Below, one piece after another: positions 9,419 to 47,368 of a DNA stretch of 64,000 nt. The translations under genes were made by a program, and so were the position numbers. The stretch lies in assembly GCF_024298765.1 (NCBI RefSeq), contig NZ_CP101210.1, one strand, 5' to 3'. Positions within the stretch are counted from its first letter, which is position 1. Each line of letters starts with the position of its first letter. The notes under the pieces are model-generated. The model ran no database searches. It saw nothing but the letters and a program-made list of their open reading frames with translations, and had not been told where the DNA came from. Origin of the DNA: Escherichia coli. Its GTDB lineage: Bacteria; Pseudomonadota; Gammaproteobacteria; Enterobacterales; Enterobacteriaceae.

Positions 9419-11944
<2,526 letters not shown>

Positions 11945-43129: not shown

Positions 43130-43217
43130 CTTTTTTAAATTGCCCCTAGATGAATGCACGGGCGGAGAGGAAATACCCCTTCGCCCGTGTCAGTATAATT
43201 ACCCGTTTATAGGGCGA

Positions 43218-45134
43218 TTATTTTTTGTCTTTGACTTCTTCAAATTCAGCGTCGACAACATCGTCATCTTTCGCGTTGTTTGCAGAAGCATCAGCACCGG
43301 CAGTCTGCTGCTGGGCATGTTGCTGCTGGGCGATTTCCATCAGTTTCTGGGAAACCTGTGCCAGTTCCTGCATTTTCGCTTCGATAGCGGCTTTGTCTTC
43401 ACCTTTCAGAGCAGTTTCCAGTGCAGTCAGTGCAGACTCGATAGCAGTTTTGTCGTCAGCCGGCAGTTTGTCGCCCGCTTCTTCAACCTGCTTACGGGTG
43501 CTGTGCAGCAGATGGTCGCCCTGGTTGCGAGTCTGTACCAGCTCTTCAAACTTACGGTCAGCTTCGGCGTTAGCTTCTGCGTCGCGTACCATTTTCTGGA
43601 TTTCATCTTCGTTCAGACCAGAAGAAGCCTTGATGGTGATCTTCTGCTCTTTACCGCTGTTTTTATCTTTCGCGGAAACGTGCAGGATACCGTCAGCATC
43701 GATATCGAAGGTAACTTCGATCTGCGGCATGCCGCGCGGTGCCGGGTTGATACCATCCAGGTTGAACTGACCCAGAGATTTGTTATCAGCTGCACGTTTA
43801 CGTTCACCCTGCAGCACGTGGATGGTTACCGCAGACTGGTTGTCTTCAGCGGTAGAGAACACCTGGCTGTGCTTGGTCGGGATAGTGGTGTTTTTCGCGA
43901 TCAGCGTCGTCATCACACCGCCCATGGTTTCGATACCCAGAGACAGCGGGGTAACGTCCAGCAGCAGTACGTCTTTTACGTCACCAGTCAGAACACCACC
44001 CTGAACAGCAGCACCGATTGCTACAGCTTCGTCCGGGTTAACGTCTTTACGCGGCTCTTTACCAAAGAACTCAGCAACTTTCTTCTGAACCATTGGCATA
44101 CGAGTCTGACCACCAACGAGGATAACGTCGTCGATATCAGATACGGACAGGCCAGCGTCCTGCAGTGCAACTTTCAGCGGCTCAATGGAACGGTTTACCA
44201 GATCTTCAACCAGGCTTTCCAGTTTCGCACGAGTCACTTTGATGTTCATGTGTTTCGGACCGGTCGCGTCTGCAGTGATGTACGGCAGGTTAACGTCGGT
44301 CTGCTGAGCGGAAGACAGCTCGATTTTCGCTTTTTCTGCCGCTTCTTTCAGGCGCTGCATTGCCAGCGGATCGTTGCGCAGGTCAATGCCCTGATCTTTC
44401 TTGAATTCTTCAACCAGGTAGTTGATCAGACGGCTGTCGAAGTCTTCACCACCCAGGTGGGTATCACCGTTGGTTGCCAGAACTTCGAAGGTTTTTTCGC
44501 CGTCAACTTCGTCGATTTCGATAATAGAAATATCGAAAGTACCACCACCCAGGTCATAAACCGCGATAGTACGGTTGCCAGTACCTTTGTCCAGACCGTA
44601 AGCCAGCGCAGCTGCGGTCGGTTCGTTGATGATACGTTTTACTTCCAGACCAGCGATACGGCCTGCGTCTTTGGTTGCCTGACGCTGAGCATCGTTAAAG
44701 TATGCCGGTACGGTGATAACAGCTTCAGTTACCGGTTCACCCAGGTAATCTTCAGCGGTTTTCTTCATTTTTTTCAGCACTTCAGCAGAGATCTGCGGCG
44801 GTGCCATTTTCTGGCCTTTAACTTCGACCCATGCGTCGCCGTTATCAGCAGCAATAATTTTGAACGGCATGATGGAAACATCACGCTGTACTTCTTCGTC
44901 CTGGAAGCGGCGGCCAATCAGGCGTTTAATCGCAAACAGGGTGTTTTGCGGGTTCGTCACTGCCTGACGTTTAGCCGGCTGACCAACCAGAGTTTCACCA
45001 TCCTGGGTATAGGCAATGATAGAAGGCGTGGTGCGATCGCCTTCGGCGTTCTCCAGTACACGAGGAGTGGTGCCATCCATAATCGCTACACAAGAGTTGG
45101 TAGTACCCAGGTCGATACCAATTATTTTACCCAT
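43218..45134 (-). CDS. dnaK: Chaperone DnaK (Hsp70)
   Basis: 638-aa [20 protein letters not shown]. Confidence 0.98.
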
Positions 45135-45254
45135 CTAAACGTCTCCACTATATATTCGGTCATCATGTGGTTGTGAGTCTGTAATAGGGGCGAAACGTCT
45201 GGTTTCAACTGCCCAATTTCATTTTTTTGCAGACTCACTCACTGCGGTTGACTA

Positions 45255-45509: not shown

Positions 45510-45914
45510 ATGAAATCCGTTTTTACGCTTTCCGCCAGCCTGGCGATTAGCCTGCTGCTGTGCTGCACGGCGCAGGCAAACGACCATAAAATCCTCGGCG
45601 TCATTGCAATGCCACGTAACGAAACCAACGATCTGGCGCTGAAACTTCCTGTTTGCCGAATTGTTAAACGCATACAACTCTCAGCCGACCATGGCGATTT
45701 ACAGTTAAGCGGTGCATCGGTTTATTTCAAAGCCGCCCGTAGCGCCAGTCAGACCCTGAATATTCCTTCAGAAATAAAAGAAGGGCAAACCACTGACTGG
45801 ATCAACATTAACAGCGATAACGACAATAAACGCTGCGTCTCAAAAATCACCTTTTCTGGTCATACGGTGAACTCATCGGATATGGCCACGCTGAAAATTA
45901 TCGGCGACGACTAA
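45510..45914 (+). CDS. yaaI: Secreted hypothetical protein (DUF2541 family)
   Basis: 134 aa from ATG at 45510 with signal peptide ([23 protein letters not shown]). Confidence 0.85.
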
Positions 45915-45939
45915 CGCCAGAATATAGAAGCCACAAAAA

Positions 45940-46653
45940 ATGAATGTTAATTACCTGAATGATTCAGATCTGGATTTTCTCCAGCATTGTAGTGAGGAAC
46001 AATTGGCAAATTTCGCCCGATTGCTCACCCATAATGAAAAAGGCAAAACTCGCCTCTCCAGCGTACTGATGCGCAACGAACTGTTTAAATCGATGGAGGG
46101 ACATCCCGAGCAACATCGCCGCAACTGGCAGCTGATTGCCGGAGAATTACAGCATTTTGGTGGCGATAGTATCGCCAACAAACTGCGTGGACACGGTAAA
46201 TTGTATCGGGCCATTTTGCTCGATGTTTCAAAGCGATTGAAGCTGAAAGCCGACAAAGAGATGTCTACGTTTGAGATTGAGCAACAGTTACTGGAACAAT
46301 TTCTGCGTAACACCTGGAAGAAAATGGACGAGGAACATAAGCAGGAGTTTCTGCACGCGGTCGATGCCAGGGTGAATGAGCTGGAAGAGCTGCTGCCGCT
46401 GCTGATGAAAGACAAATTATTGGCAAAAGGCGTGTCGCATTTGCTTTCCAGCCAATTGACCCGCATTTTACGCACCCACGCAGCAATGAGCGTACTTGGG
46501 CATGGTTTGCTGCGCGGCGCGGGTCTGGGAGGCCCTGTAGGCGCGGCACTAAATGGGGTTAAAGCGGTCAGCGGCATTGCCTATCGCGTGACAATTCCAG
46601 CCGTACTGCAAATCGCCTGCCTGCGCCGGATGGTTAGTGCCACTCAGGTCTGA
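45940..46653 (+). CDS. yaaW: Hypothetical protein YaaW
   Basis: 237-aa ORF. Confidence 0.85.
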   Translation: MNVNYLNDSDLDFLQHCSEEQLANFARLLTHNEKGKTRLSSVLMRNELFKSMEGHPEQHRRNWQLIAGELQHFGGDSIANKLRGHGKLYRAILLDVSKRLKLKADKEMSTFEIEQQLLEQFLRNTWKKMDEEHKQEFLHAVDARVNELEELLPLLMKDKLLAKGVSHLLSSQLTRILRTHAAMSVLGHGLLRGAGLGGPVGAALNGVKAVSGIAYRVTIPAVLQIACLRRMVSATQV

Positions 46654-46801
46654 TACCGGAAACCGGGGAAAATTTTCATTTTCCCCTCAAAAGATCGTAG
46701 ACACTGCCCCACTGGCTGATTATTATGCCGCGCCCTGAAAACACTACAGTTATTCAGGGAAATTATTTCACCATTCATTCGATGATGATTTTTGAGGAAT
46801 T

Positions 46802-47368
46802 ATGGGCAACACTAAGTTGGCTAATCCGGCACCGCTGGGCCTGATGGGCTTCGGCATGACCACCATTCTGCTTAACCTGCACAACGTGGGTTATTTTGCT
46901 CTGGACGGTATTATTCTTGCCATGGGCATTTTCTACGGCGGCATCGCGCAAATTTTTGCTGGTCTGCTGGAGTACAAAAAAGGCAACACTTTCGGTTTAA
47001 CCGCATTCACCTCTTACGGTTCTTTCTGGCTGACGCTGGTTGCGATTCTGCTGATGCCGAAACTGGGTCTGACCGATGCGCCAAATGCACAGTTCCTTGG
47101 TGTCTACCTAGGTCTGTGGGGCGTATTTACGCTGTTTATGTTCTTCGGCACGCTGAAAGGCGCACGCGTTCTGCAATTCGTTTTCTTTAGCCTGACCGTG
47201 CTGTTTGCCCTGCTGGCGATCGGTAACATTGCCGGTAACGCCGCAATCATCCACTTTGCCGGCTGGATTGGTCTGATCTGCGGTGCCAGCGCAATCTATC
47301 TGGCGATGGGTGAAGTACTGAACGAGCAGTTTGGTCGCACCGTTCTGCCGATTGGTGAATCCCACTAA
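46802..47368 (+). CDS. satP: Succinate-acetate/proton symporter (GPR1/FUN34/YaaH family)
   Basis: 188-aa 6-TM ORF MGNTKLANPAPLGLMGFGMTT. Confidence 0.93.
   Translation: MGNTKLANPAPLGLMGFGMTTILLNLHNVGYFALDGIILAMGIFYGGIAQIFAGLLEYKKGNTFGLTAFTSYGSFWLTLVAILLMPKLGLTDAPNAQFLGVYLGLWGVFTLFMFFGTLKGARVLQFVFFSLTVLFALLAIGNIAGNAAIIHFAGWIGLICGASAIYLAMGEVLNEQFGRTVLPIGESH

Follow-up and report, generated by a model that had tools for sequence, protein, structure and literature searches.

The analysed window is a 64,000-nt stretch of Escherichia coli contig NZ_CP101210.1, and it runs in the direction opposite to that of the K-12 origin region. The locus considered here is gene yaaW, flanked by satP on one side and yaaI on the other, with dnaK close by (Table 1). 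The strand opposite yaaW carries a long open reading frame (ORF). The initial annotation described a 208-aa minus-strand ORF lying entirely inside yaaW, and the ORF list of the window confirms both the length and the nested position. The coordinates place antisense codon position 3 opposite yaaW codon position 3 (the a3:s3 phase), which matches the ‘123/213’ phase given for htgA by Delaye et al. 2008 (PMC2268670). Upstream, the antisense frame is closed by an in-frame TAG; its retention as a stop in almost every ortholog reflects its dependence on YaaW Tyr215. The translation of the ORF is rich in Ser (20.7%), Arg (9.1%), Cys (8.2%) and Pro (8.2%), in agreement with the Ser/Cys/Pro/Arg-rich composition noted earlier.

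Table 1. Features of the yaaW locus and neighbouring genes (window coordinates).
Feature	Position	Strand	Comment
yaaW, mother gene	45940..46653	+	237 aa; Pfam Ubiq_cyt_C_chap + DUF3944
Antisense ORF	45951..46577	-	208 aa; ATG start; wholly within yaaW
Antisense ORF stop	45951-45953	-	TAA
ATG start, 208-aa form	46575..46577	-	Opposite YaaW codon 213, ATT (Ile)
In-frame TAG closing the antisense frame upstream	46581..46583	-	yaaW codons 214 and 215, GCC and TAT
Segment equivalent to the K-12 mbiA CDS	45981..46466	-	Coordinate mapping and alignment; same frame
Polymorphic stop site 1	45981..45983	-	TGG in the window; TGA (yaaW Leu14 CTT) in K-12
Polymorphic stop site 2	46029..46031	-	TGG in the window; TGA allele corresponds to yaaW Thr30 ACT, synonymous
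Polymorphic stop site 3	46149..46151	-	TGT in the window; TGA allele corresponds to yaaW Leu70Phe
Inverted repeat	46660..46690		Directly past the yaaW stop, before satP
dnaK	43218..45134	-	Local gene
yaaI		+	Local gene adjoining yaaW
satP	46802..47368	+	Local gene adjoining yaaW
mog		-	Local gene

A sequence 100% identical to the yaaW DNA of the window is annotated in RefSeq. In the E. coli records inspected, RefSeq/PGAP labels YaaW ‘msyB: acidic protein MsyB’. The true MsyB is a different protein of about 124 aa. The source of the label is NCBIfam equivalog NF007593 (PRK10236), with a full-length match to YaaW of 517 bits; the curated K-12 record names the protein ‘putative enzyme-specific chaperone YaaW’. 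The label looks like a mislabelled family model that has spread to thousands of genomes. The near-perfect inverted repeat that follows yaaW, GGGGAAAAT-TTTC-ATTTTCCCC, could serve as a bidirectional terminator; on the minus strand it lies upstream of the antisense ORF. This repeat was absent from the output of a simple terminator scan.

The antisense ORF is the long-debated candidate overlapping gene htgA/mbiA and is already known. The K-12 reference record contains mbiA (b0012, ‘uncharacterized protein MbiA’, 161 aa, 10830..11315) inside yaaW (b0011). Locus (satP–yaaI), strand, reading frame and phase are the same as those of the ORF in the window. The two frames differ by three residues across the 161-aa span, and the 208-aa ORF of strain EDL933 has 98.1% identity to MbiA. 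The mention of an annotated and debated antisense gene in the initial annotation is borne out by the K-12 gene in the same frame at 98% identity, and the debate about it is documented in PMC2268670 and PMC4182739. According to PMC4182739, selection acting on the sense frame passively shields this one, and its conservation is therefore possibly a pure artefact.

The ORF of the window differs from K-12 mbiA in its length (208 vs 161 aa), its start and its stop. The yaaW genes of the window and K-12 differ at 15 of 714 positions, and the length of 208 aa arises because two of these differences, in codon 213 and in Leu14, set the ends of the ORF. Codon 213 is ATT (Ile) in the window vs AGC (Ser) in K-12, giving antisense ATG vs CTG. 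Leu14 is encoded by CTC vs CTT in K-12, a synonymous change that gives antisense TGG vs the K-12 stop TGA; the loss of this stop adds ten codons. The first ATG (46577) precedes the K-12 ATG (46466) by 37 codons; the latter is also present in frame in the window. Two further versions of the gene have been annotated: one of 174 aa with a GTG start (P0001), and one of 196 codons (591 nt, 1993), the start of which maps to CTG in this analysis. PGAP has annotated an antisense CDS in none of the 13 RefSeq E. coli records inspected, and a whole-word literature search for ‘mbiA’ and ‘b0012’ returned unrelated acronyms only.

In the a3:s3 phase, an antisense stop can be produced only by a Tyr codon that follows a pyrimidine-ending codon, or by a His or Gln codon that follows a T-ending codon. 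E. coli YaaW contains only three Tyr residues, and 11 of its 23 His/Gln codons are preceded by codons for Glu, Gln, Lys or Trp, which cannot end in T; therefore, only about ten internal positions are at risk of an antisense stop. The stop density in this phase across 35 neighbouring genes is 0.033 per codon, equivalent to about eight stops for an average gene of the length of yaaW; about four are expected in YaaW under codon-usage resampling. Runs of 209 or more codons free of stops appeared in 5.0% of YaaW recodings obtained by codon-usage resampling and in 8.4% of those obtained by within-gene synonymous shuffling, the mean longest open run being 127–138 codons. The length of the antisense ORF, in the ~5% tail, is only marginally unusual for yaaW and unremarkable genome-wide, since such a tail is commonplace among thousands of genes. 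When 36 annotated neighbouring genes were considered in all three antisense phases, an open run took up at least 88% of the gene in 4 of the 108 gene–phase combinations.

The frame opposite dnaK, one of these four, is fully open over 639 codons. As with the yaaW ORF, its lack of stops is explained by the amino-acid and codon content of the sense gene, and its translation is rich in Ser, Arg, Pro and Cys and belongs to no family. The two differ in phase. The dnaK frame is codon-opposed (a1:s3), and stops in it need the rare codons TTA, CTA or TCA, whereas in the a3:s3 phase of the yaaW ORF open runs tend to be shorter, with a mean spacing of 30 codons between stops; it is because of this difference that the yaaW ORF drew attention. 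Open frames of the dnaK type provide an internal control for the ease with which long shadow ORFs originate. A 678-aa TTG-initiated ORF (43140..45176, plus strand) spans the whole of dnaK in antisense and exceeds dnaK itself (638 aa). Long open antisense runs in the codon-opposed phase are also found for carB (405), ileS (427), ispH (281) and dnaJ (242).

A scan of one-genome-per-species contigs yielded a set of 17 yaaW loci. The window and Escherichia sp. E1V33 share an antisense frame that is open over 209 codons; the open length is 199 codons in K-12 and a cryptic-clade ‘E. coli’, and 183 in E. albertii. Each of the 11 non-Escherichia orthologs, including those of Citrobacter, Salmonella, Kluyvera and Pseudescherichia, contains 5–9 stops, and the longest antisense runs among them comprise 59–102 codons. 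The stops sit at codons predicted to be at risk, namely 15, 31, 55, 71, 73, 85, 167, 172, 180 and 188. Among 5.8 billion predicted proteins, only three clusters match the antisense protein, two of them derived from frameshift-ridden E. coli assemblies. Proteins P0002 (201 aa, 49% identity) and P0003 (116 aa) were considered as distant homologues and rejected as artefacts; dnaK and satP are fragmented in those assemblies.

The presence of an open frame of 183–209 codons in E. coli, cryptic-clade Escherichia and E. albertii, and its absence elsewhere, would suit a genuine young overlapping protein-coding gene, overprinted in the Escherichia lineage, with a translated antisense transcript and an effect on biofilm or metabolism. 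The retention of mbiA in the curated K-12 annotation points the same way; the ORF length, at the ~5% tail for yaaW, speaks against a mere by-product of the sense gene. Taken with all the evidence discussed below, a gene of this kind is unlikely.

The ends of the frame vary within E. coli. Alleles were counted in 5426 complete E. coli genomes using 41-nt megablast queries centred on the SNP, and the counts are lower bounds, as nearby SNPs can break the 28-base seed, which must span the SNP. The ATG start allele (YaaW Ile213) was found in 74 genomes and the K-12 CTG haplotype at the same site in 3062. At the first stop site, 3878 genomes have TGG (open) and 1501 (27.7%) have TGA. The TGA allele at the second site, which shortens the frame by 26 codons, was counted in 248 E. 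coli genomes (4.6%) and also exists in E. albertii; that at the third site, with a loss of 66 codons, occurs in 154 genomes (2.8%), those of Nissle 1917 and its relatives. In total, E. coli is polymorphic for at least four stop positions; four transitions could create an antisense stop without changing YaaW, and two of them are found segregating. In 15 strains taken across the identity range, the open length is 209 codons in eight, 199 in four, 183 in one and 143 in two; YaaW is intact in all 15. It follows from the allele counts that the frame is shortened in no fewer than one third of E. coli genomes and that the 208-aa form with ATG is rare. Neither the start nor the stop is conserved across the Escherichia carriers of the frame. 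Natural truncations of 10–66 codons are fairly frequent and also occur in successful lineages, Nissle 1917 among them, which speaks against a functional young gene. Were there such a gene, its functional core would be the part common to all alleles, roughly from the K-12 ATG (46466) to ~46152, and both termini would be extended to a variable degree, as in the 208-aa form of the window.

A change that leaves the YaaW protein unaltered escapes selection on that protein and hence probes the antisense frame directly. Such yaaW-synonymous changes were divided into those that are also synonymous in the antisense frame (SS) and those that alter it (SN). For transitions in 17 Escherichia sequences, the proportions were 88/194 for the antisense-synonymous class vs 19/38 for the antisense-altering class (0.45 vs 0.50; Fisher p = 0.72); for transversions they were 18/102 vs 17/95 (0.176 vs 0.179; Fisher p = 1.0). 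The pooled observed/expected ratio (dSN/dSS) for these 17 sequences, in a test that scores sampled alleles rather than phylogenetic events, was 1.06 (95% CI 0.74–1.48), with no purifying selection on the antisense protein seen. The ratio was 0.94 within E. coli proper and 1.15 in the non-Escherichia control, where the ORF does not exist. A ratio of about 1 argues against a protein-coding gene; a weak constraint on the antisense frame (omega 0.74–1) is compatible with these values. In addition, the dS of yaaW is the highest of five local genes: in comparison with E. albertii it is 1.11, vs 0.67 for yaaI, 0.38 for mog, 0.29 for satP and 0.08 for dnaK. The comparison of the SS and SN classes is preferred over dS because most yaaW-synonymous changes are also antisense-synonymous in the a3:s3 phase. 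The initial annotation had named conservation at the synonymous sites of yaaW as a check and had called the coding status of the ORF doubtful; the check revealed no constraint, as SN changes are not depleted and dS is locally the highest, and the doubt is supported by the same two results.

The main point in favour of a young gene comes from YaaW itself. Its dN/dS is 0.015–0.022 in Escherichia, indicating strong purifying selection, vs 0.03–0.067 in Citrobacter/Kluyvera; 9–12 replacements were counted in Escherichia at dS of about 1.1 vs 28 in Citrobacter/Kluyvera at a similar dS. The protein thus evolves 2–3 times more slowly in Escherichia, which reproduces the result of Delaye et al. 2008 (PMC2268670) and is what an added constraint from the antisense frame would give. 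The satP gene shows the same trend, with small counts, and given this trend the slower evolution may be a lineage effect. As there is no depletion in the cleaner SN class, the slowdown is attributed here to constraint on the YaaW protein. The dNN/dNS ratio, 0.40 in Escherichia vs 0.83 in the control, also leans towards a young gene; it is based on only four events and is not significant (p = 0.11).

In codon usage, the antisense frame has a log-ratio of −0.67 per codon, within the range of antisense frames (mean −0.82, sd 0.16), vs +0.57 for yaaW, a value equal to the gene mean (+0.57). With an L1 of 0.335 from pooled antisense frames and of 0.703 from real proteins, its amino-acid composition lies much nearer to the former, which agrees with the earlier description of the composition as typical of antisense frames; the pooled antisense translations of neighbouring genes contain 17.1% Ser, 3.4% Cys, 9.3% Arg and 8.1% Pro. 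Codon usage and composition indistinguishable from those of generic antisense frames are a further argument against a young gene. The antisense protein matched no family in Pfam or NCBIfam. A Pfam TonB_N match on the Pro-rich N-terminus (E = 0.011, 16.7 bits vs a cut-off of 33) was rejected as compositional. The AlphaFold 2 model, made from a single sequence, yielded no confident fold and almost no secondary structure (mean pLDDT 30.6, pTM 0.17), a result that also counts against a gene, with the reservation that orphan proteins often model poorly. Shine–Dalgarno pairing at ATG 46577 is −1.8 kcal/mol, the mean for random positions; neither this pairing nor any promoter motif (see below) supports this start. 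At the K-12 ATG (46466) it is −3.9 kcal/mol, the median of 36 real genes being −4.6; this moderate value favours a gene that starts where mbiA does.

Published experiments favour a young gene as well. The 1993 work on htgA, as summarised in PMC2268670, comprised cloning and promoter mapping as well as Northern blots and protein labelling; PMC2731890 mentions a promoter within htgA/yaaW with activity in vitro; and strand-specific mutants with a phenotype are attributed by other papers to Fellner et al. 2014 (PMID 24111745). On the other side, in EDL933 screens of the same research group (10.1101/2020.11.18.388249) the ORF is missing from the antisense ORFs found to be transcribed (Table S4, 864 ORFs) or footprinted (Table S6, 216 ORFs; Table S10); of the tables searched, only the BLAST table S12 of that study contains the 208-aa ORF of EDL933 and Sakai (10736..11362). 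Moreover, the induction of htgA by sigma-32 was not confirmed, according to the discussion in PMC2268670.

The antisense genes studied in EHEC (nog1/citC, laoB, ano, asa, pop/ompA) resemble the yaaW ORF in being embedded antisense ORFs in enterobacterial genes with a restricted taxonomic distribution, and an overprinting origin has been proposed for them. Those genes were found through RNA-seq and Ribo-seq signals, whereas the yaaW ORF is absent from the EDL933 expression tables searched (S4, S6 and S10) and has no signature of selection in the present tests.

Some of the same observations would fit a non-coding antisense RNA to yaaW, transcribed from the intragenic promoter and modulating yaaW or satP. 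The ORF would then be incidental, and the phenotypes would result from altered expression of yaaW. Such an RNA could account for the promoter activity in vitro (PMC2731890) and for the Northern signal of 1993 (via PMC2268670); antisense transcription is described as widespread in E. coli (PMC7457138), and the weakness of the protein-level evidence (selection, codon usage, composition, fold) is in its favour. Nevertheless, it is very unlikely: scans of the minus strand upstream of the ORF for sigma-70 and sigma-32 motifs gave none above shuffles, no Rfam family was matched, the ORF is not among the 864 transcribed antisense ORFs of EDL933, and the synonymous sites of yaaW are not conserved, contrary to what would be expected of an RNA with a specific structure or sequence.

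The most probable reading, with a probability of roughly three in four, is that the htgA/mbiA frame is a ‘shadow’ ORF, a stop-free by-product of the yaaW coding sequence that is not kept by selection on a protein. The sense gene offers few stop contexts, the composition and codon usage are those of generic antisense frames, and the frame is freely broken both in relatives and within the species. The scarcity of stop-generating contexts in YaaW, with about ten internal positions at risk, explains the open antisense frame, and in Escherichia no at-risk internal position currently has a T-ending synonym. In the lineage of the window, the YaaW Ser213Ile replacement happened to create an ATG, and the synonymous Leu14 codon erased the K-12 stop, giving 208 codons. 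Any transcription or translation of the frame would be at a pervasive level, with no fitness consequence detectable in the sequence. The anatomy of the frame, its chance level, its taxonomic restriction, the polymorphism of its start and stop, the lack of constraint and the antisense-type composition are shown by the data, whereas the lack of a function is inferred.

A more specific version of the coding hypothesis holds that mbiA is a real, very young de novo gene with a length that is still polymorphic, and that the lineage of the window (74/5426 genomes) has gained a canonical ATG via Ser213Ile. The weak constraint that the selection test allows (omega 0.74–1), together with the slower evolution of YaaW in Escherichia, is compatible with this version, which is distinctly improbable overall. 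If it were true, the new ATG, which adds a 37-residue Pro/Ala-rich N-terminus, would represent a natural snapshot of the extension of an overlapping gene.

The shadow-ORF reading bears on how the locus is used, as htgA/mbiA is among the few textbook-cited long antisense overlapping genes in E. coli and still forms part of the K-12 reference annotation. Should it be no more than a shadow ORF, it would be unfit as a positive control for the detection of overlapping genes. The new elements of this analysis are the population-scale counts of start and stop alleles and the test limited to yaaW-synonymous changes, both of which speak against coding status; no new biological system is revealed.

The yaaW haplotype of the window is an outlier within the species. 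Only 74 genomes are at least 99% identical to it over 45700..46900, and the remaining ~5350 E. coli genomes have 97.2–98.5% identity over the yaaW region, with a gap between the two groups. The dS of yaaW between strains, 0.06–0.12, is above that of the flanking genes. The haplotype may be an imported or recombinant segment. The synonymous Thr30 change ACC>ACT, which produces the antisense TGA at 46029, is common to E. albertii and to 248 E. coli genomes, e.g., CUVET19-1704; it could have arisen repeatedly by mutation, descend from a shared ancestral polymorphism or have passed between the species by recombination. In one complete genome (NZ_CP180600.1, 1757714..1758923), an IS1-family insertion cuts yaaW into two annotated fragments; therefore, yaaW and its antisense frame are dispensable in at least one isolate.
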